Counted from the first letter of the stretch, positions 1 through 54,994 are shown. The stretch: 64,000 nt of DNA from Devosia sp. (GCF_048261455.1 NZ_JBLXGA010000002.1:170648-234647); one strand, 5' to 3'. Numbers and translations are program-made. The notes: generated by a model from the sequence alone, not told the origin.

Positions 1-1068
1 GCCATCGGGATCGTAGAAGAGGCAGGATTCGATACCGGTGGTGGTGACGGGACCGGAATTGAACAGCATGTATTGCAGCCCGTTCAGCACCATTTTCAAC
101 CCGCGATCCTGGCCGTAATAGCCGGACTTGCCCCTGGTGGTCGCGATCACCGGGACCTCGTGGTGGTCCTGCAGGTTGTGGCCGACGCCGGAGAGATCGG
201 CGGTGACGGGGATCTGGAAATCGGCCAGATGATCGGCCGGACCGAGCCCCGAGAGCAGCATGAGCTTGGTGGAATTATAGGTGCCGGCGGCGACCAGCAC
301 CTCGCCATCGGTGCGCGCCTCGTGCGGTTCGTCTTGCGCCGTGTAGCGCACGCCGACCGCACGGCCGTTCTCGACGATGATGCGATCGACGCGGGCGCCG
401 GTGACGATCTTCAGCCTGTGGTCGCGACGCAGCGGATCGAGGAAGGCACGGCGCGCGTCGGAGCGCTGCTTGTGGGCACCGCGCTGGCCGAAACTGTGCT
501 GCATGATGCCGACACCGGACTGGCCGGCGCCATTGAAATCTGGGTTGTAGTCATGCCCCAGGCCCTGGGCGGCCAGCATGAACTGCTCGGTGGTGGGCGA
601 AATGTGCCCCGGCTCGGACACCCGCAACCGGCCGGAAATGCCGTGGAAGCGGTTGTTGAAGCGCGCATTGGATTCGAGCGTGGTGAAATGGGGCAGCATG
701 TCCTCGTAGGACCAGTCGGGGGCATTGCCGAGGCCGGCGGCCCAGCCGTCGTAATCCTCGGCCTGGCCGCGCATATAGACCATGGCGTTGACGGCGCTGC
801 CGCCGCCCAGAACCTTGGCCACCGGCACGGTGGGCGCACGGCCGCCGAGCTGCGGCTGCGGCACGGATTTGTGCATTTCGAGGAAGGTGTCGCGGCCCAG
901 ATATTTCATGTAGCCGGCCGGCATGGCCATGATCGGGTTGGTGCGTTTGGGCCCGCGCTCGAGCAGCAGCACGGAATAGCCGAACTCGCCGACAAGGCGC
1001 GATGCGGCCACCGAGGCCGCCGAGCCGCCGCCACAAATGATGAAATCGTATGCCCGCGCCGCCGCCAT
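1..1068 (-). CDS. GMC-family FAD oxidoreductase (choline-dehydrogenase-like); N-terminal 356 codons only, runs off the left edge
   Basis: It is absent from the ORF track because no stop lies in the window. Reverse-complement translation from the ATG at 1068 gives MAAARAYDFIICGGGSAASVAASRLVGEFGYSVLLLERGPK (GxGxxG FAD fold) and later AKVLGGGSAVNAMVYMRG. A GGAGGG Shine-Dalgarno lies 7 nt upstream. The listed 73..1206 + ORF is its antisense shadow. Confidence 0.85.
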   Translation of the reverse strand, partial: MAAARAYDFIICGGGSAASVAASRLVGEFGYSVLLLERGPKRTNPIMAMPAGYMKYLGRDTFLEMHKSVPQPQLGGRAPTVPVAKVLGGGSAVNAMVYMRGQAEDYDGWAAGLGNAPDWSYEDMLPHFTTLESNARFNNRFHGISGRLRVSEPGHISPTTEQFMLAAQGLGHDYNPDFNGAGQSGVGIMQHSFGQRGAHKQRSDARRAFLDPLRRDHRLKIVTGARVDRIIVENGRAVGVRYTAQDEPHEARTDGEVLVAAGTYNSTKLMLLSGLGPADHLADFQIPVTADLSGVGHNLQDHHEVPVIATTRGKSGYYGQDRGLKMVLNGLQYMLFNSGPVTTTGIESCLFYDPDG

Positions 1069-1350
1069 GCCGAAGCCCTCCTGCAGGTATTTGTAGCGAG
1101 GGCAGAAGGACTTGAACAGACGGGGCGGGGGGATGATCGGACGATGGCCGGTGCGCACCGGACGCCATCAGCAACGCCGTGCGGCTTGGCGGCGAACCAA
1201 TGGTAACGCTGACAGACGGTTGGAGCCTGCCGATCAGCCGCAGCTGGCTACCAGCGGCGCGCGCGGCTGGACTGAAGATCTGAGCGCCCATCGCGATTTC
1301 TCGCCGATAGGTTTTTTGCCCGCAGACCCTGGTGCTGAGCGCGTCAACGC

Positions 1351-1413
1351 TGTCACCCATGTGCAACAACTACGCGGTAGCGCTGATTTTCCGCGATGGC
1401 AACGATTGTCACC
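1351..1413 (+). promoter_or_regulatory. Conserved bipartite upstream element of barrel paralogue A (TGTCACCCATGTGCAAC-N36-GATTGTCACC)
   Basis: The same two boxes occur with identical 36-nt spacing upstream of paralogues B and C. The second box ends 47-49 nt before each start codon. Confidence 0.45.
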
Positions 1414-1460
1414 GGTGCCGACAGGTGTAAGTCCTGCAATGAATTTAAGGGAGAGATTTA

Positions 1461-2345
1461 ATGAAGTTGCTGATATTCGAGGCGGTCTTGATGGCCGGTG
1501 TGTTGTCGGTGGGGGCAGCGCAGGCTGCAGACCTGGTCATCTATCCCGAGGCAACCTCGGACTATGCTGCCGAGCCGGCGGTGTCCGGCGTCAATGGCAA
1601 GCTGGAGCTCGACCTCGGCTATCTGACAGACCCCGAGAGCGCGATGTTCCGCGGCGCTGGCTCGATCTCCGTCCCGGTCGGCGACATGTTCGGGCTGCAA
1701 GGCGATATTTCAGTCGAAAACTCTGCTGGCGACTGGTCGGTTGGCGGAGCGCTGCACGCCTTCACCCGCGATCCGTCCAGCTATCTGCTCGGCATCACCG
1801 CCGGCGTCGTGCGCAACGACAATGCCACTTTGGCGGCCATCGGACCCGAAGCCGAAGTCTATCTCGGCCAGCTCAGCTTCGAGGGCTGGGGTGGCTGGGC
1901 CTCGCTCGACTATGACGATGCGACGCCCGATCTGGACGGCGGTTTCGCCATCGGCGACCTGGCCTACTACGCGACCGACGACTGGCGGGTCAGCATTGGT
2001 GGCGCCTCGATCCTGGGCGAAAACTCACTGAACCTTGCCACCGAATATCAGTTTGCGCCGGAACTGGGCCTGGCGCTGTCCGGCGAGGCCCGCTGGCACG
2101 ACACGGGCGCCGTTTCCGCCATGGTGGGCCTCAAGGGCTATCTCGGCACGCCAGGCAAGAGCCTGATCGATCGCCATCGCCAGGATGATCCGCCGAACCG
2201 GGCGCTTGACCTCGCTGCCGGTGCGGGAGATCTGATGTCCGCAATATCCACGGCGCCCGACGACGGGCCCAAGAGTGATGCCGACTGCGAGCTAGACGAA
2301 GTCTTTGACGAGCAGACCCAGACCTGTGTCAAGTACCCTATTTGA
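1461..2345 (+). CDS. Secreted beta-barrel outer-membrane-protein-like paralogue A with variable C-terminal tail
   Basis: The signal peptide is MKLLIFEAVLMAGVLSVGAAQA followed by ADLVIYPE. The core has an alternating beta-strand pattern ending in VGLKGYL. It then carries the conserved hinge PGKSLIDRHRQDDPPNRAL and a unique 45-aa acidic tail with 2 Cys. It is paralogous to 2787, 5370 and 7769. Confidence 0.85.
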   Translation: MKLLIFEAVLMAGVLSVGAAQAADLVIYPEATSDYAAEPAVSGVNGKLELDLGYLTDPESAMFRGAGSISVPVGDMFGLQGDISVENSAGDWSVGGALHAFTRDPSSYLLGITAGVVRNDNATLAAIGPEAEVYLGQLSFEGWGGWASLDYDDATPDLDGGFAIGDLAYYATDDWRVSIGGASILGENSLNLATEYQFAPELGLALSGEARWHDTGAVSAMVGLKGYLGTPGKSLIDRHRQDDPPNRALDLAAGAGDLMSAISTAPDDGPKSDADCELDEVFDEQTQTCVKYPI

Positions 2346-2380
2346 CGCTATCGACCAGGCGCCGCGCCTCACCAGACGAT

Positions 2381-2411
2381 CGCCGCTCCTTCGGGGGCGG
2401 CGTTCTTTTTT
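2381..2411 (+). terminator. Rho-independent terminator after paralogue A
   Basis: The hairpin CGCCGCTCC-TTCG-GGGGCGGCG is followed by a TTCTTTTTT run. Confidence 0.7.
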
Positions 2412-2675
2412 GCGCATTGCCGTACGGGATTGCCCGACAGCTGGGTCACCGTTTGGCATCGCTCATCCTACGCGCCGAGTCTCCGTTCGCCCCGTGCCGT
2501 TGGACCGTTCAGCGCTGAGGCTAGTTAGCGGGAAGGGTGCGGTCGTGGCCATATCGAGATTTGGGGCGATTGCATTGAAGCCGCGCGGCTGGACTGAGGT
2601 TCTGAACGCCTCAACTTTATTTACGCTCGGCCCTGTCATGTTCGGGCACACGTGCTTGCCCGACGTCTGTATCGA

Positions 2676-2737
2676 GTCACCCATTTGCAACGGTTGCACC
2701 TGAACACTTTCTTGCCGCGCCTGTAGAGATTGTCACC
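2676..2737 (+). promoter_or_regulatory. Conserved bipartite upstream element of paralogue B (GTCACCCATTTGCAAC-N36-GATTGTCACC)
   Basis: See 1351..1413. Between the boxes, TGAACA-N17-TAGAGA is a weak sigma70-like candidate. Confidence 0.45.
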
Positions 2738-2786
2738 AAGCCCCATCAGTGTATTTTTCTGAAAGGGAATTAAAGGAGAGGCGGCA

Positions 2787-3668
2787 ATGCGGCTGCGGGT
2801 ATTGAATACGGTCTTGATGGCCAGTGTGTTTTCGGTGGGTGCGGCAAATGCCGCAGACCTGATCATCTATCCCGAGCCGATGGCCGATTATGCTGCCGAT
2901 TTCGTCGCGCCGGCCGTCTCCGGGCTGAACGGCAAGCTTGAACTCGATCTCGGCTATCTCACCGATCCGTCGAGCGCTGTCTTCCGCGCCGCGGGCTCGA
3001 TTTCGGCGCCGGTTGGCGACATGTTCGGCCTGCAGGGCGATCTCTCCGTGCAGTCCTATGAGGGTGACTGGAGTTTCGGTGGCGCAGTGCACGGCTTCAC
3101 CCGTGACCCCTCGAGCTATCTACTCGGCGTGACGGGTGGCTTCGTTACCAGTTCCGAGTCCACTCTCATGGCGATTGGTCCGGAAGCGGAGCTCTACTTG
3201 GGACAGATCAGTCTTGAGGCCTGGGCCGGTTGGGCTTCCATCGACTATACCGATGTGCTGCAGCCGGACCTAAGTGGCATGTTCGCTATCGCCGACCTCG
3301 CCTATTACGCGACGGATGACTGGCGCGTCAGCATCGGCGGTTCGTCGATCCTCGGCGAGAACTCGCTGCGGCTGGCCACCGAATACCAGTTTGCGCCGGA
3401 GATGGGCCTTGGGGTCAGCGGCGAAGCGCGCTGGCATGATACCGGCGCGGTTGCCGCCATGGTCGGGCTCAAGGGCTATATCGGCGAGCCCGGCAAGAGC
3501 CTGATCGATCGCCATCGTCAGGACGATCCGCCGAACCGGGCGCTCAGCCTGTTCTCGGGGGCGAGCGAACTGATCCATGATGGCGCGTACTGCGGCGAAG
3601 GCGAAAAGTACGTGCTAGTTGATACCGACACATACGACTGCGAGAGCATCTCAGACATACCGAAGTGA
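2787..3668 (+). CDS. Secreted beta-barrel OMP-like paralogue B
   Basis: The signal peptide MRLRVLNTVLMASVFSVGAANA is followed by ADLIIYPEP. An AAAGGAGAGG RBS precedes the start. It has the same core and hinge as A. Its unique 40-aa tail is SLFSGASELIHDGAYCGEGEKYVLVDTDTYDCESISDIPK. Confidence 0.85.
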   Translation: MRLRVLNTVLMASVFSVGAANAADLIIYPEPMADYAADFVAPAVSGLNGKLELDLGYLTDPSSAVFRAAGSISAPVGDMFGLQGDLSVQSYEGDWSFGGAVHGFTRDPSSYLLGVTGGFVTSSESTLMAIGPEAELYLGQISLEAWAGWASIDYTDVLQPDLSGMFAIADLAYYATDDWRVSIGGSSILGENSLRLATEYQFAPEMGLGVSGEARWHDTGAVAAMVGLKGYIGEPGKSLIDRHRQDDPPNRALSLFSGASELIHDGAYCGEGEKYVLVDTDTYDCESISDIPK

Positions 3669-3791
3669 CATCAGCTGCCGGCACAAAGGCATGTGAGCGG
3701 AGCTGACTACTTGCCGCACTACAGCGCGGTGCATTAACTCAAGGTTGATGCTTTCCGCATGTGGTTCATACCGCAGACCTTGTTTAAGCAG

Positions 3792-5108
3792 TTATGTCTG
3801 GGACGGGCGCCACTCGTTGACATATTCCAGAAATTTACCGGCTGCCGTGGTTTCTATCCGCGGCAGCCGTATCATTTTGACTGCTGCGTCATCGAAAAAG
3901 ATCTCGCGAAAGGCCGCCTCGGCCTGATGTTCGTCGCCGAGCCGCGCGGTATCGCGCGGCACATATCGTATCTCGAAATCCAGAGGCCCCACCTGCGCGA
4001 TCTGCCACATTGTCGCGTCCAGCGCTTCCCGGGCAGAATCGGGCAGCATGCGGGCCGCCGCGCGACCATCGGGATGCGTGAAGATGGCCATGGACCGCCC
4101 GGAGATGGATTTCAGCAAGGGCAGGACACGCCCGCATGAACAGGGCGGGGCGAAGGCGGCAATGTCGCCCTGGTCGTAACGGATCAACGGCTGGATGGTG
4201 CTGACAAACGGCGTGATGACGACGCGCCCCTCCACACCGACCGGGCACGGGGCACCCTCGGCATCCACGATCTCCAGAAACAGGTTCTCTGCGCTGACAT
4301 GAAGTCCCGGGCCGTCGGGACAGGGATGCGCCATGTGACCGCCTTCCTTGGAACTGTAGTGTTCCAGGCAGGCAGCGCCGAACACCCGCCGGAAAGCCGC
4401 CTTATCGTCGGCACCGACGTGTTCCCCGTGGGCGAAAATGCTCTCGAGGCTGGCGAAAATACCGAGCCGCTCTGCCTCGAGCGCCAGAGTGTGAACATTC
4501 TTGGGCACAGAGGAATAGTAGGCGGTCGCTGTGCGCGACAGAAACTCAAGTGTCTCCTCGGAGGTGAAGCGCCGCGATATGGTGAAGGATCTGCCGGCCC
4601 GTGCGGCAGCATCCCAGGGCGGCCCCCAGATACCCGTCTGCTTGCCGTCGGGGTACAGGGCATCGGGATCGAAACCGCCGCGCGCGGTGTAGGTCTTTGA
4701 CCAGTCGACGCCATGCCAGCGCTGCGCCCGCCAACGGATGGCTGCGGTGGCGAGCATCATCAGCCGGTTGGTGGAAATCTTGATCGGCAGGCCGGTCGAG
4801 CCCGAGGATTCAATGGTGCTGTAATCCCCGTGGCCACGCGGCCGGTTGCGCGCCAGCATGGCGTCGCGGTGGTCGCGCATGTCGGTGCGGGTGACGATCG
4901 GGATCTCGTGCCAGCGGTCCCAGTCGATGCCGCCGCCGGGGCGGAAGACGGAATCGAGGCGGTTTTCGTAGAAGGGCACGTTGGCGCGGGCATGGCGCAG
5001 AAGCTGCTCGAGCTGCTCGCGCTGATAGGCGACGAGCTGCGACGGAGACCAGTACTGGCTCTCCATCAGCATCTCGAAGAACTGTTGCTGCAACTCGTCT
5101 TCTGTCAT
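3792..5108 (-). CDS. PaaK/CapK/F390-synthetase-like adenylate-forming ligase, copy 1
   Basis: It carries the ANL-type nucleotide motif IESSGSTGLPIK and the C-terminal domain motif PPCSCGR..LPLL..ISGR. The start at 5108 (MTEDELQQQ) was chosen by identity with copy 2. The track's upstream extension to 5273 is Arg/Gly-rich junk. Confidence 0.8.
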   Translation of the reverse strand: MTEDELQQQFFEMLMESQYWSPSQLVAYQREQLEQLLRHARANVPFYENRLDSVFRPGGGIDWDRWHEIPIVTRTDMRDHRDAMLARNRPRGHGDYSTIESSGSTGLPIKISTNRLMMLATAAIRWRAQRWHGVDWSKTYTARGGFDPDALYPDGKQTGIWGPPWDAAARAGRSFTISRRFTSEETLEFLSRTATAYYSSVPKNVHTLALEAERLGIFASLESIFAHGEHVGADDKAAFRRVFGAACLEHYSSKEGGHMAHPCPDGPGLHVSAENLFLEIVDAEGAPCPVGVEGRVVITPFVSTIQPLIRYDQGDIAAFAPPCSCGRVLPLLKSISGRSMAIFTHPDGRAAARMLPDSAREALDATMWQIAQVGPLDFEIRYVPRDTARLGDEHQAEAAFREIFFDDAAVKMIRLPRIETTAAGKFLEYVNEWRPSQT

Positions 5109-5258
5109 CTCCCGACTAAATCGCGGTCCGCCGCGGGGCGCAAGACGAGGCGGTGGCGCCGAGCCTCTATCACCAGTTCGAACGCATCGCCTCGATGATC
5201 TGCCGAGCCAAGGCGCCGCCCTCCTCGTGCGGACGATCCTGCCCGACCTCTGTATGGC

Positions 5259-5320
5259 GTTACCCGTTTGCAACAGCCGTATTTGAACACTCCCTTTCGT
5301 TGCCTATGGCGATTGTCACC
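5259..5320 (+). promoter_or_regulatory. Conserved bipartite upstream element of paralogue C (GTTACCCGTTTGCAAC-N36-GATTGTCACC)
   Basis: See 1351..1413. TTGAAC-N16-TATGGC lies between the boxes. The following ~55-nt 5' leader is nearly identical to that of paralogue B. Confidence 0.45.
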
Positions 5321-5369
5321 AAGCCCCATAAGTGTATTTTTCTGAAAGGGAAATTAAGGAGAGGCGGCG

Positions 5370-6224
5370 ATGCGGCTGCGGGTATTGAATACGGTCTTGA
5401 TGGCCAGTGTGTTTTCGGTGGGCGCGGCGAATGCCGCAGACCTCATCATCTATCCTGAACCGATGGCCGATTACGCCGCCGATTTCGCGGCGCCTGCAGT
5501 GTCCGGGGTGAACGGCAAACTGGAATTCGACCTCGGCTATCTCACCGACCCCTCGAGTGCGATTTTCCGCGCTGCGGGCTCGATTTCGGCGCCAGTGGGC
5601 GACATGTTCGGCCTGCAGGGCGATCTCTCCGTGCAGTCCTATGAGGGTGACTGGAGTTTCGGTGGCGCAGTGCACGCCTTCACCCGCGACCCGTCGAGCT
5701 ACCTGCTCGGTGTGACTGCCGGTGTGGTCTCGACAGGCGATTCCACCCTGTTCGCCGTCGGCCCCGAAGCTGAACTCTATCTCGGCCAGATCAGCATCGA
5801 GGCCTGGGCTGGTTACGCAGCGCTTGAATATGACGATGCCGGGCTGACCGATCTGAGCGGCGGGTTTGCGATAGCCGACCTGGCCTATTATGCGACGGAC
5901 GACTGGCGGGTGAGCATCGGCGGTTCGTCGATCCTCGGCGAGAACTCGCTGAACATTGCAACCGAATATCAGTTTGCCCCGGAAATGGGTCTGGCGCTCT
6001 CCGGCGAGGCCCGCTGGCACGACACCGGCGCCGTTGCCGCCATGGTGGGGCTCAAGGGCTATATCGGCGAGCCGGGCAAGAGCCTGATCGATCGCCACCG
6101 CCAGGACGACCCGCCGAACCGGGCACTCAACCTGTTCTCGGGTGCCAGCGGTCTGATCTCGGAAGAGTACGAGGAGCCAGAAGAAGATCTGAAAGATCCG
6201 CCGCAGGACCTCGAGCCCACTTAG
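5370..6224 (+). CDS. Secreted beta-barrel OMP-like paralogue C
   Basis: The signal peptide and first ~110 aa are almost identical to B. It has the same hinge. Its unique 31-aa acidic tail is NLFSGASGLISEEYEEPEEDLKDPPQDLEPT. Confidence 0.85.
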   Translation: MRLRVLNTVLMASVFSVGAANAADLIIYPEPMADYAADFAAPAVSGVNGKLEFDLGYLTDPSSAIFRAAGSISAPVGDMFGLQGDLSVQSYEGDWSFGGAVHAFTRDPSSYLLGVTAGVVSTGDSTLFAVGPEAELYLGQISIEAWAGYAALEYDDAGLTDLSGGFAIADLAYYATDDWRVSIGGSSILGENSLNIATEYQFAPEMGLALSGEARWHDTGAVAAMVGLKGYIGEPGKSLIDRHRQDDPPNRALNLFSGASGLISEEYEEPEEDLKDPPQDLEPT

Positions 6225-6255
6225 GCAATCGATTTTAGTCGTTGTTTGATCAACC

Positions 6256-7566
6256 TTAGCTCAACGATTGCCACTCGTTCACATATTGAAGATATTTTCC
6301 GGCTGCCGTGGGTTCGATCCGCGGCAGCCGGATGCATTTGACCCGCGCGTCTTCGAAGTAGATTGCCTTAAAGGCGGCTATCGCCGCCGTTTCATCGCCA
6401 GGTCTGTCTGGATCGTTCGGTACATAGCGGATGTCGAAATCGAGCGGCCCAACTTGCGCGACCTGCCAGATGGTCGCACCGAGACCGTTGCGGACGGCCT
6501 CGGGCAACATGCCGGATGCGCGACGACCGTCTGGATGAGTGAAGAACGCTGTTTGTCGGCCTGAAATAGCCGCCAGGAGGGGTAGTCCGCGCCCACAACT
6601 GCAGGGCGGCGCAAGAGCGGCGATGTCGCCCTGATCATAGCGAATGAGCGGCTGCGTGGTGCTGGTAAAAGGCGTAATGACCACGCGGCCTTCGACACCG
6701 ACGGCGCAAGGTTTCCCGTTCTCGTCAACGATCTCCAACAGGAGGTTCTCCGCGCCGACGTGCAGACCAGCGCTACTCGGGCAGGGGTGCGCCATCTGCC
6801 CGCCTTCCTTGGAGCTGTACTGTTCGAAACAGATCGCCCCGAATGCCCGCCGGTACGCCTGCTTGTCGTCCATTTCGACTTGCTCGCCATGCGTGATCAC
6901 CGCATGCAGTGGTAGATCCAACCCTTCCCGCTCAGCAGCAAGCGCGAGCACATGTGCCGGCTTCGGACCAGCGCGCAAATAGCTAGCGCCTACGCTGGAC
7001 ATGACGTCCACCATTTGCTCTGCAGTCAACTTGCGGTCCATCAGATATGCGGTGCCGAGTTGCGCTGAGCTGAGCCAAGGCGGGCCCCAAGGGCCGTCTG
7101 ATCGGTAGCCACGATCCTCCCGAACCTCACCGACATAGCGCGCGGCATACGTCTTGGACCAGTCAAAGTCGTGCCAGGTTTGTGCGCGATATCGAACAGC
7201 GCGCGTGGCCAGCATCATCAGACGGTTCGTGGTGATTTTGATCGGCAATCCCGTAGAGCCAGAGGATTCAATGGTGCTGTACTTCCCGTGCCCCGTCGGG
7301 ACGCGCTGCGCCAGCATGGCGTCGCGGTGGTCGCGCATGTCGGTGCGGGTGACGATCGGGATCTCGTGCCAGCGGTCCCAGTCGATGCCGCCGCCGGGGC
7401 GGAAGACGGAATCGAGGCGGTTTTCGTAGAAGGGCACGTTGGCGCGGGCATGGCGCAGAAGCTGCTCGAGCTGCTCGCGCTGATAGGCGACGAGCTGCGA
7501 CGGAGACCAGTACTGGCTCTCCATCAGCATCTCGAAGAACTGTTGCTGCAACTCGTCTTCAGTCAT
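6256..7566 (-). CDS. PaaK/CapK/F390-synthetase-like adenylate-forming ligase, copy 2
   Basis: This is a 436-aa ORF with the motifs IESSGSTGLPIK and PPCSCGRGLPLL. The first 86 aa are identical to copy 1. Confidence 0.8.
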   Translation of the reverse strand: MTEDELQQQFFEMLMESQYWSPSQLVAYQREQLEQLLRHARANVPFYENRLDSVFRPGGGIDWDRWHEIPIVTRTDMRDHRDAMLAQRVPTGHGKYSTIESSGSTGLPIKITTNRLMMLATRAVRYRAQTWHDFDWSKTYAARYVGEVREDRGYRSDGPWGPPWLSSAQLGTAYLMDRKLTAEQMVDVMSSVGASYLRAGPKPAHVLALAAEREGLDLPLHAVITHGEQVEMDDKQAYRRAFGAICFEQYSSKEGGQMAHPCPSSAGLHVGAENLLLEIVDENGKPCAVGVEGRVVITPFTSTTQPLIRYDQGDIAALAPPCSCGRGLPLLAAISGRQTAFFTHPDGRRASGMLPEAVRNGLGATIWQVAQVGPLDFDIRYVPNDPDRPGDETAAIAAFKAIYFEDARVKCIRLPRIEPTAAGKYLQYVNEWQSLS

Positions 7567-7768
7567 CCCTCGACTAAATCGCGGTCCGCCGCGCGAGGCA
7601 AGAGACGAGGCGGCAAGTCACGGATTGCCGCTTTGCTGCGCCAGCCGGCCGCGAGTCACATTTCCGCAACTCCCGCGGCGAAGGATTTCGTCACATCTGC
7701 CAGAGGCTTGCCGCTTAAGCAGAGATATGTACGTAATTTCTCCAGACTATGTTTACTGGGGGCTTTAC

Positions 7769-8623
7769 ATGCGACTGCGTATCCTCGGCGTCGCGCTGCT
7801 CGGCACCGCCTTGTGCGGAACCGGCGTGCAGGCGGCCGATCTCATCATCTATCCGGAGCCAATGGCGGATTATGCCGCCGATTTCGTCGCGCCGGCCGTG
7901 TCCGGTGTAAACGGCAAGCTGGAACTCGATCTCGGCTATCTCACCGATCCGTCGAGCGCCATCTTCCGCGCTGCGGGCTCGATTTCGGCACCAGTGGGCG
8001 ACATGTTCGGCCTGCAGGGCGACCTGTCCTTGCAGTCCGAGGACGGCGACTGGTCGGTTGGCGGCGCGGTTCACGGGTTCACCCGCGACCCATCCAGCTA
8101 TCTGCTGGGCATTACCGCCGGCGTGCTGCGCAACGACGACGCCATGCTGACGGCGATCGGCCCCGAAGCTGAACTCTATCTTGGCCAGATCAGTCTTGAG
8201 GCCTGGGCCGGCTGGGCCATGGTCGACTACGACGTTGCCATCCCCGACGAGAACGGCATGTTCGCCATCGCCGACCTCGCCTGGTACGCGACGGACGACT
8301 GGCGGCTGAGCCTCGGTGGGGCCTCGATCCTAGGTGAGAATTCGCTGCGGCTCGCAACCGAATACCAGTTTGCGCCGGAGATGGGGCTATCCGTGTCGGC
8401 CGAGAGCCGCTTTCATGACAGTGGCGCGGTCGCCGCCATGGTTGGGCTCAAGGGCTATTTCGGCGAGCCGGGCAAGAGCCTGATCGCCCGCCATCGCCAG
8501 GATGACCCGCCGAACCGGGCGCTCAGCCTGGCGGGTGGCGCTGGCGATTTGCTCGAGATCCAGTCGGACCAGATTGTCGTCCCGCCGCCCCCGCCCCCGG
8601 AGCAGTCGGAGCTGCCGGACTAA
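7769..8623 (+). CDS. Secreted beta-barrel OMP-like paralogue D
   Basis: The start was set at the ATG at 7769 (MRLRILGVALLGTALCGTGVQA followed by ADLIIYPEP) by alignment with A-C. The hinge is PGKSLIARHRQDDPPNRAL. Its unique 32-aa tail contains PPPPPP. Confidence 0.8.
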   Translation: MRLRILGVALLGTALCGTGVQAADLIIYPEPMADYAADFVAPAVSGVNGKLELDLGYLTDPSSAIFRAAGSISAPVGDMFGLQGDLSLQSEDGDWSVGGAVHGFTRDPSSYLLGITAGVLRNDDAMLTAIGPEAELYLGQISLEAWAGWAMVDYDVAIPDENGMFAIADLAWYATDDWRLSLGGASILGENSLRLATEYQFAPEMGLSVSAESRFHDSGAVAAMVGLKGYFGEPGKSLIARHRQDDPPNRALSLAGGAGDLLEIQSDQIVVPPPPPPEQSELPD

Positions 8624-8720
8624 ACCGAGTGCGAGAATCAGCCGCCGACCTCCGCACTACGCCTGCCGCGATCGGAACAGGAACCGGCTAGAACTTCGCG
8701 AGATGCATCCCATAGTCCGA

Positions 8721-8749
8721 ATCCCCCGGCAAAGCCCGGGGGATTTTTG
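8721..8749 (+). terminator. Rho-independent terminator downstream of paralogue D
   Basis: The hairpin CCCCCGG-CAAAG-CCCGGGGG is followed by ATTTTT. Confidence 0.7.
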
Positions 8750-8780
8750 CATTCGAAGGTAAGTTCGCGTCGCGGCGTGG

Positions 8781-9794
8781 TTAGGGCCGCGGGCGGGTGT
8801 CGCGGGCTGCGGCGCGGCGCGCCTGCTTGAGCTGGCGATTGTGCGCGGCACGGGCCGCGGCGTCATCGCCCAGATGCGCTTCGCCCCGTTCTCGCGCCAG
8901 CTGCATCTGGCGTTCGCGCTCCAGCGCGCGGGCGGTGTTGCCTGTGTCGTGACAGGTCTGGCAGATGCCGTCCTGCAGCGCATCGGGCGCCATCGGGGTA
9001 CGGCAGGCGCGGCAGAGTTCGGCCTGCCCCTCCTGGAGCCCATGGGTTACCGAGACGCGCTCGTCGAAAACGAAGCACTCGCCAGCGAAGCGGCTTTCGG
9101 CTTCCGGCACGGTTTCGAGATATTTCAGGATGCCGCCCTGCAAGTGAAACACCTCGGGGAAGCCCTGCTCCAGCATATAGGCCGAGGCCTTTTCGCAGCG
9201 GATGCCGCCGGTGCAGAACATCGCGACCTTCGGCGTTTTCTTCGGGTCGAGCTTCGCCACATAGTCCTTGAACTCGGTGAAGCTCGCCGTGTGCGGATCG
9301 GCGGCGCGGGCGAAACTGCCGAGCGCCACCTCGTAGTCGTTGCGGGTATCGATCACCAGCACGTCGTTGCGGTCGATCAGCGCGTTCCAGTCCTTTGGCG
9401 CGACATAGGTGCCGACGCGGCGTGAGGGGTCGGCCTGGGGCGCGCGCAGCGTGACGATCTCGGGTTTCAGCCGCACCTTCATGCGGTGAAAGGGCATCTC
9501 GTCCGACCACGAATATTTGGCCTCGGCCCCGGCCAGCCGGCCGGCCCACAGCCGGTCGGTCTCGAACCAGGCGGCCAGCGCGTCGATCGCTTCGGGCGTC
9601 CCCGCCACGGTGCCGTTGATGCCTTCCGGCGCGAGAATGAAAGTGCCGCGAATGCCGCGGGCGCAACAGAACCGGGCCAGTTCCGGCTGCAGCGCGGCGC
9701 AATCGGGCAGCGCGGCGAACCTGTAGAGGGCCAGAACCTTGAAGGGCTTTGGCGTTTCGGGCAGGGTGGCGGAACTGTCAACGGGCGCGATCAT
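8781..9794 (-). CDS. trhO: Rhodanese-domain tRNA uridine(34) hydroxylase (YceA/TrhO family)
   Basis: It shows the family-typical N-terminus KVLALYRF, the rhodanese active-site loop FCTGGIRCEKA and a C-terminal Cys cluster. Confidence 0.8.
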   Translation of the reverse strand: MIAPVDSSATLPETPKPFKVLALYRFAALPDCAALQPELARFCCARGIRGTFILAPEGINGTVAGTPEAIDALAAWFETDRLWAGRLAGAEAKYSWSDEMPFHRMKVRLKPEIVTLRAPQADPSRRVGTYVAPKDWNALIDRNDVLVIDTRNDYEVALGSFARAADPHTASFTEFKDYVAKLDPKKTPKVAMFCTGGIRCEKASAYMLEQGFPEVFHLQGGILKYLETVPEAESRFAGECFVFDERVSVTHGLQEGQAELCRACRTPMAPDALQDGICQTCHDTGNTARALERERQMQLARERGEAHLGDDAAARAAHNRQLKQARRAAARDTRPRP

Positions 9795-9955
9795 GATGGG
9801 CCGGATGTATCATCCGGCTGGCATGACGGGCAACTTCGATACATCGGAACCGTTTGGAACCAGTCACGGGGCTGGTGGCGGGTGGCATTGCCTGCCCGTC
9901 GCGCCATCCGATCGCAAGCTGCAAAGCACAGACCAAAGAGGGAGGCCAACGCGCC

Positions 9956-10882
9956 ATGAAGACCTATCAGATACCCAATTCCGAGCTCGCGCTGCCGGCC
10001 GTCATCGCCGGGCTGATGCGCATCAAGGAGATGAGCGACGCCGAGATCCGCGAACTGGTCGGCGCGGCGATGGACGCCGGCGTGACGATGATCGACCATG
10101 CCGATGTCTATGGCGGCGACCACCTGTGCGAGCGCCGCTTCGGCGAGGCGATGCAGCTGAGCGCCAGCGACCGCGAGAAGATGGTCATTCAGTCCAAGGT
10201 CGGCATCCGCAAGGGGTTCTTCGACTTTTCGTCCGAGCACATCCTGAGCTCGGTGGACGAGTCGCTGAAGGCGCTAAATACCGACTATCTCGACGTGCTG
10301 TTGCTGCACCGTCCAGACACGCTGGTGGAGCCCGAGGATGTCGCCAAGGCCTTCGACACGCTGCACGCCGCCGGCAAGGTGCGCCATTTCGGCGTCTCCA
10401 ACCAGACGCCGGGGCAGATGGAGCTATTGAAAGGCACGCTGAACCAGCCGCTGCTGTTCAACCAGGTGCAGCTGTCGATCACTCACGCCAATCTCATTGC
10501 GCAGGGCATTGCGGTGAACATGGACGGGCTCGACCAGTCGATCTCGCGCGATGTGGGCCTACTCGACTATGCGCGGCTCAACGGCGTGACGCTGCAGGCC
10601 TGGTCGCCGTTCCAGGCCGGGTTCTTCAATGGCGTCTTCGTCGGCGACCGCGAGAACTATGCCGAATTGAACGACGTTCTGGACGAACTGGCGGAAACGC
10701 ATGGCGTCACGCCGACCGGCATCGCGGTGGCGTGGATCACCCGTCATCCGGCCAATATTCAGGTCGTGCTCGGCACCACGAAGCCGTCGCGGGTGCGCGA
10801 ATGCGCGGCGGGAGCCGACGTGCAGCTCAGCCGCGAAGACTGGTACCGGCTGTTCCGCGCCGCCGGCCACAAGGTGCCGTAA
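9956..10882 (+). CDS. Aldo/keto reductase (YdhF-like)
   Basis: MKTYQIPNSELALPAVIAGLMRI... DHADVYG ... LLLHRPD are AKR motifs. The start at 9956 follows a GAGGGAGG RBS. Confidence 0.8.
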   Translation: MKTYQIPNSELALPAVIAGLMRIKEMSDAEIRELVGAAMDAGVTMIDHADVYGGDHLCERRFGEAMQLSASDREKMVIQSKVGIRKGFFDFSSEHILSSVDESLKALNTDYLDVLLLHRPDTLVEPEDVAKAFDTLHAAGKVRHFGVSNQTPGQMELLKGTLNQPLLFNQVQLSITHANLIAQGIAVNMDGLDQSISRDVGLLDYARLNGVTLQAWSPFQAGFFNGVFVGDRENYAELNDVLDELAETHGVTPTGIAVAWITRHPANIQVVLGTTKPSRVRECAAGADVQLSREDWYRLFRAAGHKVP

Positions 10883-10999
10883 TGGCGTCCGGGGCGGCCG
10901 CGCGCCGCCCCCTCACCCGCCGGCCCGAGAATGTGCGGCGGGCCGCATTTGACGACGACGGCGCGCCGTGGGCCGCCAGGACATATCAGGAGAGACTTC

Positions 11000-12022
11000 A
11001 TGACCTATCGGGCCAGCGACGACCGCTATGGCGAAATGCCGTACCGGCGCACCGGCAGATCCGGGCTGATGCTGCCGGCGATCTCGCTGGGGCTGTGGCA
11101 GAATTTCGGCGGCAGCCGCGACTATCCCAGCGCCTTCGAAATGCTCGGCTATGCCTTCGACAAGGGCGTCACGCATTTCGACCTCGCCAATAACTACGGC
11201 CCGCCGCCGGGCTCTGCCGAGGAACTGTTCGGCCAGGTGATGGCGCGGGACTTCCGGCCCTATCGCGACGAGATGGTGATTTCGTCCAAGGCCGGGTGGC
11301 CGATGTGGGATGGCCCCTATGGCGACCACGGCTCGCGCAAATATCTTATCGCCTCGGCGGACCAGAGCCTCAAGCGGATGGGTCTCGACTATGTCGATAT
11401 CTTTTATTCGCACCGGTTCGATCCGGAGACGCCGCTCGAAGAAACCATGGGCGCCCTGGCGCAGCTGCACCGGCAGGGCAAGGCGCTCTATGTCGGCATT
11501 TCCAGCTACCCCGCCGAGCAGACGCGCGAGGCGCACCGAATTTTGAAGGAGATGGGCGTTCCCTGCCTCATCCACCAGCCGAGCTATTCGATCCTAAACC
11601 GCTGGATCGAGGATGACGACACGATCGGCGTCTGCGACGAACTGGGGATCGGCATGATCGCCTTCTCGCCGCTGCAGCAGGGCATCCTGTCGGGCAAGTA
11701 CAACCGACGCGACGACCTCGGCGGCACCCGCGCCTCCGAGAACTATTCGCTGAACGCCAGCCGGCTGGAGCCGCGCGTGCTAGATGCCGTCGAAAAGCTG
11801 GGCGCCATCGCCGAAGCGCGCGGGCAGAGCATGGTGCAACTGGCGCTGGCCTGGGTGCTGCGGCGCAAGGAGATCACCTCGGCGCTGATCGGCATCCGCA
11901 CGCTGGACCAGCTCAAGGACTGCCTCGGGGTGCTCGACAACCTGAGCCTCGACGACGCCGAAATCGCGGCGATCGACGCGGCGGTCAAGGACGGGCTGAC
12001 CGACAACCGCCCGCAGGTGTGA
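11000..12022 (+). CDS. Aldo/keto reductase (YghZ/Tas-like)
   Basis: MTYRASDDRYGEMPYRRTGRSGLMLPAISLGLWQNFGG ... FDLANNYGPPPGSAE. A CAGGAGAG RBS lies before the ATG at 11000. Confidence 0.8.
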   Translation: MTYRASDDRYGEMPYRRTGRSGLMLPAISLGLWQNFGGSRDYPSAFEMLGYAFDKGVTHFDLANNYGPPPGSAEELFGQVMARDFRPYRDEMVISSKAGWPMWDGPYGDHGSRKYLIASADQSLKRMGLDYVDIFYSHRFDPETPLEETMGALAQLHRQGKALYVGISSYPAEQTREAHRILKEMGVPCLIHQPSYSILNRWIEDDDTIGVCDELGIGMIAFSPLQQGILSGKYNRRDDLGGTRASENYSLNASRLEPRVLDAVEKLGAIAEARGQSMVQLALAWVLRRKEITSALIGIRTLDQLKDCLGVLDNLSLDDAEIAAIDAAVKDGLTDNRPQV

Positions 12023-34507: not shown

Positions 34508-35125
34508 ATGACAAGATCTGCCCTGCTGGGGGGCGTTGCACTATTCGCCCTGTCTATGCCCGCCTTGGCCGCTGATCTGATCATCGACACGCCCGCTCCG
34601 ATGGCAATGGCGCCCGCCCATGAGACAGGCGTCTACGCCGAGTTTCTCGGCGGCGCCGCACTCCCGGCTACAATGATCTACGACACCGATGATGAATACG
34701 ATTATGCCGCTGGCTGGGCTGTGGCCGGCGTGCTTGGCTTTGCCACCGGTATCGATGGTCTGTCGCTTGAAGGTGACCTGTTCTACGCCTCGCGGGATTC
34801 GTCTCCTGACGAGAATGACGAGTACAACGTGACGACAGCGAGCGCCATGGCGGCCTTGAAGTACACTGTCGATCTCAACGACACCTTCTCCGTCTATGGA
34901 GCCGTCGGTCTTGGTGGCGTCTATTTGCGTGACGAAGAGATTGGCGGAGCCGTCGAGGCTGAAGGCTGGGGGGCTGGCTATCTCCTGAAGGCCGGTGTGA
35001 CCGCTCAGGTCGCTGATGCTGTGAGCCTGGTGGGCGAAATACGCCACGTGGAGTCTTTCGAACGCATTGACGACGAGCAGATCGGCACCACTTCCGTTCT
35101 CGCGGGTGTCAAGTTCGACTTCTGA
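34508..35125 (+). CDS. Omp25/OMP_b-brl-type small outer-membrane beta-barrel protein
   Basis: The signal peptide ...MPALA is followed by ADLIIDTP. The product shows an alternating strand pattern and a C-terminal GVKFDF with a terminal Phe. Confidence 0.8.
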   Translation: MTRSALLGGVALFALSMPALAADLIIDTPAPMAMAPAHETGVYAEFLGGAALPATMIYDTDDEYDYAAGWAVAGVLGFATGIDGLSLEGDLFYASRDSSPDENDEYNVTTASAMAALKYTVDLNDTFSVYGAVGLGGVYLRDEEIGGAVEAEGWGAGYLLKAGVTAQVADAVSLVGEIRHVESFERIDDEQIGTTSVLAGVKFDF

Positions 35126-46031: not shown

Positions 46032-46170
46032 CGGCGCCGTGCGCAGATGCGCGCCTGGCGACGGTGCGGCCTCCCGTTTGTTTGCTCTCCAGCCCTTTCC
46101 AAATACGCGACTGAACAATTGCGGTGGTGCCACCCGGCGCATAGCGTGGCGTTGGGTCGGGGAGCGGTAC

Positions 46171-48525: not shown

Positions 48526-48574
48526 GCCAGCTGAACGTCCTGTGCCCCCGGGAGGTTGCGGCGGCAAGGCAGTG

Positions 48575-49939
48575 TCATGAAACCTTGCTCGCAAAGAACA
48601 GCCGCTTGAGGTCCTGGGACCAGTCCAGCCGGTCACTGACAACAACTTCCACCTCGAACGCCGTGTCCGTCGCCGTTCGAATGAGTTGACGCAGCTTTTG
48701 GCGTACGTCTGCCTCAAGCGGATCCTTCCGGCTGATCTCGACGGTCAGGACCTCCCGGCTGTACTGGCGGACGCGACACTCGTCGAAGGCGGCAATTTTC
48801 ATCACCGAGCGTGTGGACAGATAGAACGGGATCAGCCGACCATCCGGATGGCGGACGAAGCTCTTGCCGCGGCCATAGATGTGCGACAGCGTCGTGCCAT
48901 CATGCCCACACGGGCACTGCCGGTGCACCTGCCCGAGGTCGCCGATGTCGTAGCGCAGGATCGGGGTGGCATAGGCGTTGAGGCCGGTCACCAGCAACCG
49001 GCTAACCGTCGCGCCCTGATACTCGGCCGTGACGGAGGGGTCGGCCTCGACGATCACATTGCTATGCGCGACATGGAAATAGCCGGGCATATGCCGGCAC
49101 TCATAGGCGATTGGTCCGGTCTCGCCGGAGGAATAGTTCGCGTAGGAGCGAACGCCCAATCGGGCGAAGGCCGCCACCATCGCCTCGCTGCGATAGTCCG
49201 AGGTGTGCATCCAGGCCTTGACCCCCAGCTCGGCCAATAGCGCGTCGCCGCCATGCTCATGCAGCAGTTCGACGAAGCGGCTGGTGCTGACGAGATAGCC
49301 GACCGGGGCTTCCCGCATGGCCGCGACAACGTCCTCAATCGCGCCGTCGGCGAAGCTGTGAATGATCTCGCGATTGGTCCCATTGGCGAAGAGCCGCGCC
49401 AGATCGCCGGCCCAGTTCTCGCTGCGGCGGACGACCACCGGACCCTGCATGGCGCCCAGATTGAGCGCCGGATTGATCTGCACCCGGTTCTCCGACAGCG
49501 GGAGATCGTTGACGAAATACTGCGCCAGGCTGCGCTGGACGTTGTAATAGCCGTTCGCGCCGCTGGTGTAGACGCGCACCGGCGTGCCGGTCGACCCTGT
49601 GGACGCATAGCTCCTCTTTCCCCCGCTCTCCTCGGGAACCAGGCTCCCATCCGCCTCGCTCTGTGCCGCCAGTTCGCCGCGCGTCAGGGCCGGCAGCGCG
49701 GCGAAGCCGTCGGATGCCGACAGGATACGTTCTCGCCACCAGGCCGATTTCTGCGCCGCATGGCGCAGCACATTGCCCAATTGCGCCCGCTGCCAGGTTT
49801 CTCGCGCCGCCCGGTCGCCATTCTCGAGCAGTTGCATCGCCGAAATATTGGACAGCTGCATCTGCACATCACGGGGCACCAACTCCAAGGGGTTGGTCGA
49901 AAAGGCTGAAGAGATGAGGGATCGTTCGTGCAGGTTCAC
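48575..49939 (-). CDS. PaaK/CapK/F390-synthetase-like adenylate-forming ligase, copy 3 (divergent)
   Basis: It has YASTGSTGTPVRVY and CPCGHDG..LSHIYGRG motifs and the same overall layout as copies 1 and 2. The start is uncertain, either GTG at 49939 or ATG at 49861. Confidence 0.75.
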   Translation of the reverse strand: MNLHERSLISSAFSTNPLELVPRDVQMQLSNISAMQLLENGDRAARETWQRAQLGNVLRHAAQKSAWWRERILSASDGFAALPALTRGELAAQSEADGSLVPEESGGKRSYASTGSTGTPVRVYTSGANGYYNVQRSLAQYFVNDLPLSENRVQINPALNLGAMQGPVVVRRSENWAGDLARLFANGTNREIIHSFADGAIEDVVAAMREAPVGYLVSTSRFVELLHEHGGDALLAELGVKAWMHTSDYRSEAMVAAFARLGVRSYANYSSGETGPIAYECRHMPGYFHVAHSNVIVEADPSVTAEYQGATVSRLLVTGLNAYATPILRYDIGDLGQVHRQCPCGHDGTTLSHIYGRGKSFVRHPDGRLIPFYLSTRSVMKIAAFDECRVRQYSREVLTVEISRKDPLEADVRQKLRQLIRTATDTAFEVEVVVSDRLDWSQDLKRLFFASKVS

Positions 49940-50014
49940 GGATCGGCTCGATTGTGGCTTTCAGACGGCAGGGAAATCATCGTATGGCTGGTATCGTTAT
50001 CAGGAGATTTTTTT

Positions 50015-50701: not shown

Positions 50702-50777
50702 GGCGGGAAACTTGCTGGCCTGCGTCGGGTGACGACGCGGGCCATGCGAGATCGGCTCCGATCAACAATTTATCAGT

Positions 50778-50810
50778 CGTCATGCCCGGGCTTGACCCGG
50801 GCAGCCATGG
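50778..50810. repeat. REP-like hairpin GTCATGCCCGGGC-TTGA-CCCGGGCAGCCATGG
   Basis: This is a palindromic GC stem related to the terminal hairpins of the two-hairpin element. Confidence 0.5.
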
Positions 50811-50889
50811 CGCAATCGCATCGGACCTCGATCGACTGTCCGGAAATCTCGGGGCGGGCCCGTCGTATCACGCTTGGTTGAGACCCGCG

Positions 50890-51834
50890 CTACCCCTCCC
50901 GCCGCCCAATGAAGTAGTCGCGGACGCCCTGCGCAAGGGCGTCCTGCCCCTCTGCCCAGGACCAGGTGCCGTTTTCGGCGCGGCGCAGGTGGCGGCGCGG
51001 GTCGAAGCCGGCGGCCGCAGTGATGTGATGGCGCTTGCCATACTTGCGGTTGCGCAAATCGCCATGCCACATGTGATAGGCCGTCTGCTCGATCGCCCGG
51101 AACGGCGCAAACAGGCCAGCACGCCGAGCGCGTTCCGCCCAGTCCACGATACAGGCGAATTCGAACGGATTGGCCTGACGATGAATAAAACCCTCGTCGA
51201 GCAGGCCGAGCGCCGCGCACATCATGATCGCATCGCCGCCACCGACGATTGCCGCATCGTAGAGGCCGTCTTCGAGACTCTTTCGCCGTGCCGCCAGCGC
51301 CATGCCGGTGGCAGAAACGTTGCCATGCGCGCGTCGGCTCGCTGGATCGTAGCAGGCCCGCAGCGCCTCTGCCCCGCGCCCTTCGCCCGCCGCAAGTCCA
51401 AGCGACGGCTCGCGCAGCAGCGCCGAAGCCTGCCGCGCAGTCTCGGCCGTCCAGCCTGAGGCGTCCCCGGGGGGCAAGTGCACCACCTCGCGGAACAGGT
51501 GCAAAAGTCCGCCGTCCTGTTGCAATGCCGAGATGGCGCTTTGCAGCCAATCGTGGCGCGAGAAGATCACGTCGCAGTCGACCCAGGCGACGAATTCCAC
51601 ATGCGCCGGCAGGGCGGCGATCCCGATATTGATCAACCGCTCCTTCTGCCAGATGAACGGCTCTCCATCGCGGCTCAGCAGGATCTCGGCATCATCTTCA
51701 CCCAACTGCCGGCTGCCGGGCGCGGAAAGCTCCACCGTCAACAGCGGCGCCGCGAGATTGCGGCGAAAGGCGCGGTAGTTCTCCAGCCGGTTCCGCGACC
51801 CGGTCGGATTGAAATAGGAGGTGACGACCCACAT
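50890..51834 (-). CDS. Hypothetical protein, possibly a GT-A-like glycosyltransferase
   Basis: MWVVTSYFNPTGSRNR ... VAWVDCDV (a DxD-like motif). The family assignment is tentative. The start was chosen just downstream of the ydcF-like stop. Confidence 0.45.
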   Translation of the reverse strand: MWVVTSYFNPTGSRNRLENYRAFRRNLAAPLLTVELSAPGSRQLGEDDAEILLSRDGEPFIWQKERLINIGIAALPAHVEFVAWVDCDVIFSRHDWLQSAISALQQDGGLLHLFREVVHLPPGDASGWTAETARQASALLREPSLGLAAGEGRGAEALRACYDPASRRAHGNVSATGMALAARRKSLEDGLYDAAIVGGGDAIMMCAALGLLDEGFIHRQANPFEFACIVDWAERARRAGLFAPFRAIEQTAYHMWHGDLRNRKYGKRHHITAAAGFDPRRHLRRAENGTWSWAEGQDALAQGVRDYFIGRREG

Positions 51835-51847
51835 CGGGCTTGCCGGA

Positions 51848-52441
51848 TCACGAGGCACAACGTTGCTCCCTGAGCTCGGGTGGGAGCGCATGGGGAAAGT
51901 AGCGACCGAGCTTTGCGACTTCGCCCAGCACGTCACGGCGGCCGCGCGCCGTCAAATGCCAGTCGTCGGGTCCGAAATACTGACTCGGGTAGCCTTGATG
52001 GCCCAACGCCACCGTGTCCGGGACCACCGTGCGCGCGGTGATCAACGCACGCGTCACATGATAGGAGATCCCCACGACATTGACGGCCTCCACGCGATAC
52101 GGCAGCGCTGCCACCATCGCCCAGCTGAAGGCGATGTTCTCGCCCGTATGGCGGGCGCGCGGCTCGCACAGCACCCTATCCGGCGGCACGCCATGCGCCA
52201 GCGCCGCCTCGGCCATCGCCATAGCCTCGGGGCGGCCGATCCGCGCATTGTATCCGCCGGTGAAGATCAGTTTGCCCGCAATCTGCTGGTCATGAAGCTG
52301 GAGGGCGGCGGCCAGCGGATTCTTCCACAGGGTCATGCCGAGCACGATGGTGTAGTCGGCACGCGCCGGCGCCGCCGGCGGGAACACCAGTTCCGTGATC
52401 AGACGCCTGGCACGGGCATCGAGAGGCAACATGGCGGGCAA
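51848..52441 (-). CDS. YdcF/DUF218 (ElyC/SanA-like) family protein
   Basis: ADYTIVLGMTLW ... LIFTGGYN ... CEPRARHTGENI. Confidence 0.7.
   Translation of the reverse strand: MPAMLPLDARARRLITELVFPPAAPARADYTIVLGMTLWKNPLAAALQLHDQQIAGKLIFTGGYNARIGRPEAMAMAEAALAHGVPPDRVLCEPRARHTGENIAFSWAMVAALPYRVEAVNVVGISYHVTRALITARTVVPDTVALGHQGYPSQYFGPDDWHLTARGRRDVLGEVAKLGRYFPHALPPELREQRCAS

Positions 52442-53188: not shown

Positions 53189-54994
<1,806 letters not shown>

Follow-up and report, generated by a model that had tools for sequence, protein, structure and literature searches.

The stretch of DNA considered here, hereafter the window, comprises 64,000 nt from Devosia sp. and carries near its left end an array of six genes, in which four paralogues of a secreted beta-barrel protein (B1 to B4) are interspersed with two paralogues of a PaaK-like ligase (L1 and L2). 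This array is a tandem amplification, at an ancestral chromosomal site, of a two-gene module, B-L, that is conserved mainly in Hyphomicrobiales. In NCBI, the proteins of this DNA have matches of 100% among 'Devosia sp.' entries. The existence of this module, the linkage of its two genes and their anatomy are, in our view, well supported. The six genes are the following:

1461-2345, + strand: B1, barrel paralogue with a Cys-pair tail; no ligase adjoins it
2787-3668, + strand: B2, barrel paralogue whose tail carries a Cys pair; convergent with L1
3792-5108, - strand: L1, PaaK-like adenylate-forming ligase of the barrel-associated subfamily
5370-6224, + strand: B3, barrel paralogue whose tail is acidic and without Cys; convergent with L2
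6256-7566, - strand: L2, PaaK-like ligase, paralogue of L1
7769-8623, + strand: B4, barrel paralogue whose tail is Pro-rich and without Cys; no ligase downstream

An earlier note on this DNA had placed six genes at these positions, and open reading frames (ORFs) are confirmed there. As it had also described, the four barrels have a core ending in VGLKGY[LIF] and a signal-peptide-like N-terminal segment, while SSGSTGLPIK and CSCGR are present in both ligases. The N-terminal segment ends in AxA in all four barrels. The spacings of 2583 and 2399 bp that it gave between barrel starts are correct, and the tandem duplication of a two-gene unit that it read from them is supported by the comparisons below.

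Conservation of the pair and history of the array

The linkage between B and L was surveyed from both sides. On the barrel side, with one genome retained per species, 79 loci and two further non-redundant loci were compared, which contain 86 B genes. An L-type ligase gene lies within 600 bp of 48 of these, and in 42 of the 48 cases it is convergent with the barrel gene, at the 3' end of the latter; a ligase is found within 10 kb for another five, and the other 33 have none, some of them being located at contig ends. Pairs are present in Devosia, Aestuariivirga, Rhodobiaceae, Hyphomicrobium, Taklimakanibacter, and one Caulobacter. Their conserved geometry is a barrel gene followed, tail-to-tail, by a ligase gene, with stop codons separated by a few to about 120 bp. 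After clustering of all ORFs, B and L emerged as the only families common to two quite distinct synteny backgrounds and to the Caulobacter locus: the order is GMC - B - L - DUF6622 - LytTR - LysR in Devosia, and aminotransferase - TerC - small secreted protein - B - L(-L) - EF-G-like in the Aestuariivirga-like background. Caulobacter, where the two genes also adjoin, belongs to another bacterial order. No third conserved partner gene was found in the 81 barrel-centred loci or in the ligase-centred loci inspected.

On the ligase side, a metagenome scan provided 80 loci, with identities from 58% down to 24%. A barrel gene adjoins 27 of the 35 assessable ligases of the same subfamily as L1 and L2, versus none of 24 remoter PaaK-like relatives. 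Arrays and tandem ligases are also frequent elsewhere, as B-L-B-L in locus L013, B-L-B-L-L in locus L030, and B-L-L in many loci. The earlier note had allowed that the adjacency might be a one-off duplication artefact; since the pairing recurs across taxa and in different neighbourhoods, whether approached from the barrel or from the ligase, this objection does not hold. That B and L are neighbours in many related bacteria further indicates that they probably work together.

The site occupied by the array is bordered by three additional features:

1..1062, - strand: 3' part of a GMC oxidoreductase gene, left edge of the ancestral site; continues beyond the window
1152..1274, + strand: remnant (41 aa) of a LytTR-domain gene, between the GMC oxidoreductase gene and B1, detected by tblastn
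8781..9794, - strand: UPF0176/rhodanese gene (Pfam), right edge of the ancestral site

The flanks of the array, i.e., GMC on one side and UPF0176/aldo-keto reductase on the other, are those of single modules in other Devosia. By tblastn, the GMC oxidoreductase shows 79% identity over 354 aa to the GMC protein of Devosia sp. A16, and the UPF0176 protein is 75% identical to its A16 orthologue; a GMC gene also flanks the barrel gene in loci L001 and L003-L005. The LytTR remnant is 49% identical (tblastn, E 6e-7) to the C-terminus of the A16 LytTR protein, whose gene lies beyond the ligase in other Devosia. DUF6622 and LysR, both present in A16, are absent from the array site of the window. With DUF6622, LytTR and LysR otherwise missing and only this LytTR remnant left, the array thus formed together with a deletion or rearrangement. 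Beyond the right edge, two aldo-keto reductase genes adjoin at 9854-10882 and 10931-12022; the product of the latter is 84% identical to the single A16 orthologue, and that of the former is a distant paralogue (28%).

The barrel paralogues are mutually 71-84% identical in protein and 74-83% in DNA, and L1 and L2 are 71% identical in protein. Self-comparison of the array by BLAST reveals a duplication whose DNA identity varies, in a mosaic fashion, between 72 and 89%. In the ligase genes, identity is 89% over the first 480 bp at the 5' end and the DNA upstream of them, falls to 72% towards the 3' end, and is not measurable in between, where blastn yields no alignment. In protein, residues 1-85 of the two ligases are identical and the greatest divergence is found around residues 140-235. 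Such mosaic identity points to an old duplication with some homogenisation, and rules out an assembly artefact or a recent duplication. A comparable array is found at the same site in a related metagenomic Devosia contig (L171, 1-3075), where a ligase 91% identical to L1 is followed by a barrel 86% identical to B4, an N-terminal ligase remnant of 30 aa and a further barrel, and then by UPF0176 and the same pair of aldo-keto reductase genes as in the window. The content of this contig indicates that the array gains and loses units. In the window itself, no ligase remnants were detected by tblastn beside the orphan barrels B1 and B4.

Candidate transcription signals within the array are:

2381..2402, + strand: terminator-like hairpin after B1, a 9-bp GC-rich stem followed by a T run (consensus match only)
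2730..2757, + strand: promoter-like site upstream of B2, TTGTCA-16-TATTTT
5313-5340: promoter-like site upstream of B3, identical to that of B2 (TTGTCA-16-TATTTT)

The hairpin is seen only after B1. Conserved blocks are common to the regions upstream of B1 to B4 (1280-1470, 2600-2796, 5180-5379, and 7580-7778, respectively), with GTCACCC(A/G)T(T/G)TGCAAC about 100 bp before the barrel genes, followed by GATTGTCACC and GTGTA. From their sequence, these blocks may correspond to the site of a common regulator or sigma factor. No riboswitch that would name a ligand was found with Rfam in positions 1-9000 of the window. The earlier note had also drawn attention to the divergent regions between ligase and barrel genes. 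The lengths it gave stand (261 bp for L1-B3 and 202 bp for L2-B4), but a divergent promoter as the conserved link between the two genes does not: the geometry that is conserved is tail-to-tail, a separate promoter-like region precedes every barrel gene, and the divergent spacers of 200-260 bp exist because modules are stacked.

Anatomy of the two families

B1 to B4 match no Pfam or NCBIfam family, OMP_b-brl included (PF13505, with E-values considered up to 1), and a profile of 55 members of the B family returned only noise from PDB sequences. An AlphaFold2 model of B2, built with the alignment of these 55 members, has a mean predicted local distance difference test score (pLDDT) of 88 and a predicted template modelling score (pTM) of 0.78. 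It comprises a predicted signal-peptide helix, a stretch of about 25 residues and 12 beta-strands connected by very short turns, and, after this predicted barrel, short helices at residues 239-263 and a terminal hairpin. When the model was compared to the PDB with Foldseek, the best E-value (3.7e-8) was obtained for the invasin/intimin beta-domain and the best TM-score (0.77) for KdgM and NanC; OmpG, autotransporter beta-domains, FapF, and the COG4313 channel 4rl8 are also listed. The neighbours are outer-membrane barrels of 12 to 18 strands. Omp25/OMP_b-brl, the type to which the barrels had been assigned before, is therefore rejected, given the lack of a PF13505 match and the 12 modelled strands versus about eight expected. 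B is instead a new unannotated family which, judging from the model, has only its fold in common with known 12-stranded barrels.

Members of the family (B1 scores 432 bits on the corresponding hidden Markov model, HMM) carry a signature on either side of the barrel: a mature N-terminus in Ala-Asp with an invariant PAVSGxNGK ahead of strand 1, and, after the last strand, a near-invariant (Y/F)FGxxxKSLI(D/R)RHR(Q/E)DDP(P)NRxLDLF. The latter is followed by a hypervariable tail of about 30-50 residues, usually with one Cys pair: two or four Cys are present in the tail of 111 of 117 motif-bearing homologues, and B3 and B4 are among the six that have none, with no frameshifted Cys-hairpin remnant in either gene upon three-frame translation. 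When a standard barrel topology is presumed, column conservation averages 0.80 in the periplasmic strand halves and 0.81 in the post-barrel motif, far above the extracellular halves (0.58) and the tail (0.24). As deduced from the alternation of residues along the strands, H102, R106, E133, E135, Y137, E144, D170, R180, and E199 would face the lumen near the periplasmic rim; such invariant charged or aromatic residues could pair with the charged post-barrel segment. As for the N-terminus, AxA is followed by ADL in all four barrels of the array (cleavage site judged by eye), and A-AD is found within the first 60 residues of 109 of 120 B homologues. The mature N-terminus of an OMP_b-brl protein encoded elsewhere in the window (34508-35125) also reads ADLIID, and an Ala-Asp N-terminus seems to be general for outer-membrane proteins of this Devosia.

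An exhaustive profile search returned 1,383 clusters at 50% identity for the B family (E <= 1e-3), and the motif and a Cys-containing tail are kept in most of the 149 newly returned representatives inspected. In some relatives (P0435, P0440, P0442, P0443, P0424, and P0388), C-terminal extensions follow the motif, such as collagen triple-helix repeats, DUF4215 Cys-rich repeats, a 437-aa Ser-rich stalk with three Cys hairpins, or a Peptidase_S74 intramolecular-chaperone domain, a domain found in fibres and spikes. These add-ons are the only Pfam domains found in distant relatives of B, with none for the barrel itself. The presence of fibre-type and long C-termini suggests that the post-barrel region behaves as a variable, passenger-like module.

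Concerning the ligases, their description as PaaK-like in the earlier note is upheld, since homology to solved PaaK-like enzymes extends over the whole length of the protein, the P-loop (SSGSTG) is conserved, and the catalytic C-terminal Lys (K424) is invariant. Their neighbours in the PDB are 4r1l from B. thetaiotaomicron, 6siw (NatL2), 6wuq (AjiA1), and PaaK (2y27/2y4o), the family profile matching the first three with E-values of 2e-30, 4e-27, and 1e-25, respectively. The best NCBIfam match of L1 and L2 is the DVU_1553 family (1e-34), and their scores are far below the cut-offs of the PaaK, FlxY, BagE, and F390-related models; with the PaaK equivalogs TIGR02155 and NF041878, for instance, they obtain 40-72 bits, versus cut-offs of 646 and 700. 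By these profile comparisons, L1 and L2 are placed in a branch of PaaK-like ANL enzymes that is in no curated equivalog. In contrast to PaaK, NatL2, AjiA1, or 4r1l, they belong to a distinct subfamily defined by its linkage to B and by an invariant Cys262, His269, and CxCGR motif; C262, H269, C322, and C324 could form a putative metal site. On the HMM of this subfamily, L1 and L2 both score about 630 bits (636 for L1), and a remote match of 27 bits is found with a FadD-type model. They also lack the paa or natural-product cluster context of the known enzymes: no paa catabolic cluster surrounds L, B being the only family conserved with it across 160 loci, and no polysaccharide biosynthesis locus was seen around L1/L2-type ligases among the B-L neighbourhoods compared. 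One ligase of the subfamily without a barrel, in L101, lies in a low-GC island (2942-6021), preceded by a protein with a prepilin-like N-terminus and followed by a 241-aa ORF whose N-terminus looks like that of a sugar transferase, both as judged by eye.

A second ligase-outer-membrane protein module in the window

At some distance from the array, the window contains another ligase gene next to that of an outer-membrane protein (OMP):

48575..49939, - strand: L3, PaaK-like ligase of a different subfamily, 27% identical to L1/L2
50012..50701, + strand: O3, true OMP_b-brl barrel (PF13505, E 2.7e-16, 60.6 bits)
50890..51936, - strand: U, 348-aa protein of no matched family, conserved beside L3-type ligases

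Together with a DUF218 gene, this module spans 48575-52441. The locus at 48.6-50.7 kb had previously been read as a third occurrence of the same pairing, but it is not a copy of B-L: L3 belongs to another subfamily, since it reaches 133 bits on the L1/L2 HMM whereas L1 and L2 reach about 630. O3, for its part, is unrelated to B and does not match the B-family HMM. L3-O3-U is thus a second, independent module, parallel to B-L and with a third protein. L3 homologues of a Devosia-like contig, of Bradyrhizobium sp. 1, and of further metagenomic contigs are likewise no more than one gene away from an OMP_b-brl gene, and they always have a U homologue beside them (34-76% identity in L165-L170), while no U homologue was found near any B-L locus. 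U has no match in Pfam, NCBIfam, or the PDB, and its single-sequence AlphaFold2 model has a pLDDT of 37; from motifs in its sequence, our guess would be a GT-A glycosyltransferase fold.

Other observations were made on this part of the window and on related loci. In one metagenomic L3-type locus, two copies of U are found with inositol-1-phosphate synthase, HAD, and nucleotidyltransferase neighbours. Just upstream of the L3 module are genes for an HNH_2 endonuclease-domain protein (46018-47079) and an Extensin-like_C protein (47542-48717); other Devosia have an Extensin-like_C gene some 9 kb away from their B-L module. Finally, the region 54000-58920 has a low GC content (0.52-0.58 versus about 0.65 elsewhere) and includes a 956-aa ORF of the SNF2/helicase family with a GC content at third codon positions of 0.51; it is probably horizontally acquired DNA.

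Possible functions of the B-L pair

As to what the pair does, we tentatively rank slightly first, as a weak preference, the possibility that B is a display protein resembling inverse autotransporters and is modified by L. B would be a small self-exporting protein, built like an inverse autotransporter, whose invariant post-barrel segment would plug or thread the pore and whose variable knob would be presented beyond it. L would activate a carboxylate with ATP, which would end as an amide or ester on B before Sec export, and duplication and divergence of B and L would then diversify the displayed structure. The model of B indeed recalls the type Ve proteins intimin and invasin, with a predicted N-terminal 12-stranded barrel, a conserved linker-like segment, and a C-terminal extension, and barrel plus linker is the defining domain of inverse autotransporters (PMC4943183). 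Invasin moreover gave the best Foldseek E-value, and fibre-type C-termini exist in relatives of B. The sequences are unrelated, however, and the 'passenger' of B would amount to 30-50 residues, with neither LysM nor Big domains and with a translocation of the tail that is hypothetical. The logic of a cytoplasmic modifier dedicated to a neighbouring type V protein would be that of aah and aidA, where the gene of a cytoplasmic enzyme also adjoins that of a self-exporting outer-membrane protein: aah is located directly upstream of aidA, and Aah glycosylates the AIDA-I passenger (PMC6555100). Enzymes of that kind are nonetheless glycosyltransferases, usually encoded co-directionally with their substrate, whereas L is predicted to be adenylate-forming, is convergent with B, and would perform a modification that is hypothetical.

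Several points weigh against such a role. Barrels with and without an adjacent ligase show no difference in the length, Cys content, net charge, or C-terminal residue of the tail. B1 and B4 lack a ligase of their own, and 33 of the 86 B genes surveyed elsewhere have none up to a distance of 10 kb, although some of these lie at contig ends. One barrel gene is often followed by two or three ligase genes, a multiplicity easier to reconcile with several small-molecule substrates than with a single protein substrate, and the convergent, separately transcribed arrangement of B and L does not imply co-expression. B does not match the Pfam family of inverse autotransporters (invasin_beta), and we know of no adenylate-forming ligase that modifies a Sec substrate before export. 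The function of the module, including an action of L on B, can only be inferred.

Another reading is that of uptake coupled to activation (vectorial acylation), which we regard as possible but doubtful. B would in this case be a small outer-membrane channel specific for a carboxylic acid and L would trap the acid in the cytoplasm as an acyl-adenylate or acyl-CoA; arrays of paralogues and tandem ligases would widen the substrate range, and both the two to three ligases per barrel and the variability of L around residues 140-235 are consistent with diversified small-molecule specificity. PaaK-family enzymes typically make aryl-CoA thioesters. In addition, the modelled barrel is geometrically closest to KdgM and NanC, 12-stranded channels for acidic sugars of similar size and with short loops (TM-score 0.77-0.78 normalised to KdgM, root-mean-square deviation 3.9-4.0 A, 188 columns), and the channel 4rl8 is in the same Foldseek list. 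KdgM and NanC differ from B in that they have no sequence or Pfam relationship to it, have no post-barrel motif or Cys tail, and are encoded in loci for sugar-acid catabolism, of which there is none here. The same logic operates with FadL/FadD, where an outer-membrane channel is combined with an acyl-activating ligase of the cytoplasm and a dedicated transporter in the inner membrane is lacking, FadL being a 14-stranded barrel with a hatch domain; B has no Pfam match to FadL, any more than to KdgM, and the only FadD-type match of L is that of 27 bits. Porins are common in catabolic clusters, as illustrated by phaK of P. putida, annotated as a phenylacetic-acid-specific porin. Since the paa region of this species thus includes phaK, the previous statement that no described pathway pairs the two families was overstated. 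Against an uptake function, no inner-membrane transporter or catabolic gene conserved with the pair was found in the neighbourhoods compared, and every ligase scores far under the PaaK equivalog cut-offs. B furthermore displays features foreign to nutrient channels, namely a post-barrel segment whose conservation exceeds that of the barrel and a hypervariable disulfide tail, as well as relatives with collagen or Peptidase_S74 extensions.

L might alternatively amidate or esterify a carboxylate on a cytoplasmic or lipid-linked precursor of polysaccharide, lipopolysaccharide, or peptidoglycan, with the anchoring or function of B depending on the modified polymer; we consider this unlikely. Certain outer-membrane proteins of Rhizobiales are covalently linked to meso-diaminopimelate of peptidoglycan by L,D-transpeptidases, and the Ala-Asp predicted at the mature N-terminus of B is also that of these attached proteins (PMC10787603). 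Adjacency to a ligase is seen for 41 of 45 B genes with this AD extension versus 18 of 29 without it (Fisher p 0.006, uncorrected for phylogeny). A precedent for a PaaK/CapK-like protein that would, as is suggested for L by analogy, serve envelope modification rather than catabolism is VpsH, which adds glycine to the lipid-linked repeat unit of the Vibrio VPS polysaccharide (PMC13463779). VpsH is, however, encoded within a polysaccharide biosynthesis operon. The parallel module of the window sets an L3-type ligase beside DUF218 and U, and modules of this type are elsewhere found beside an Acyl_transf_3/SGNH gene or beside genes for inositol-phosphate synthase and a nucleotidyltransferase, a context that is no more than suggestive of a polysaccharide locus for L3. 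This analogy rests on another ligase subfamily, though, and B-L has no conserved association with a U homologue, a glycosyltransferase, a flippase, or any other gene of envelope biosynthesis.

It is also improbable that B and L lack any biochemical coupling and are neighbours by inheritance, or linked by regulation only, for instance through overlapping convergent transcripts. The two genes form separate transcription units, their 3' ends may overlap given the distance of a few to about 120 bp between stop codons, and B as well as L is found without its partner in a substantial minority of cases. This reading nevertheless accounts poorly for an adjacency found in two unrelated synteny backgrounds and in a Caulobacter, a member of another bacterial order, for its restriction to one ligase subfamily (27 of 35 versus 0 of 24), and for the duplication of the pair as a unit in several lineages. 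Just as improbable, in our estimate, is a variant in which the invariant segment would be a leader or recognition sequence, the ligase would tailor the Cys-stapled tail peptide in the cytoplasm, and the barrel would export or release it; if true, these would be self-transporting, ligase-tailored peptides, and arrays would provide combinatorial surface or signal diversity.

In a literature search, no paper was found that links PaaK-like ligases with outer-membrane barrels, or an outer-membrane protein of Devosia with a phenylacetate-CoA ligase. B-L could be either a type V-like protein with its dedicated modifier or a channel with its activating ligase. Large as it is, with about 1,400 clusters at 50% identity, the B family is unmatched in Pfam, NCBIfam, and the PDB, and it is outside the barrel that its conservation is highest. 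The strict link between B and a single ligase subfamily offers a concrete handle on two families without an assigned function. That the window contains another ligase-OMP module, independent of the first, suggests that the theme is more general in Hyphomicrobiales. Modification of B by L, if it occurs, would amount to a novel way of tailoring an outer-membrane protein ahead of its export; should the pair instead serve uptake, it would represent a minimal route of a new sort, made of a channel and a ligase, by which soil Hyphomicrobiales acquire carboxylic acids.

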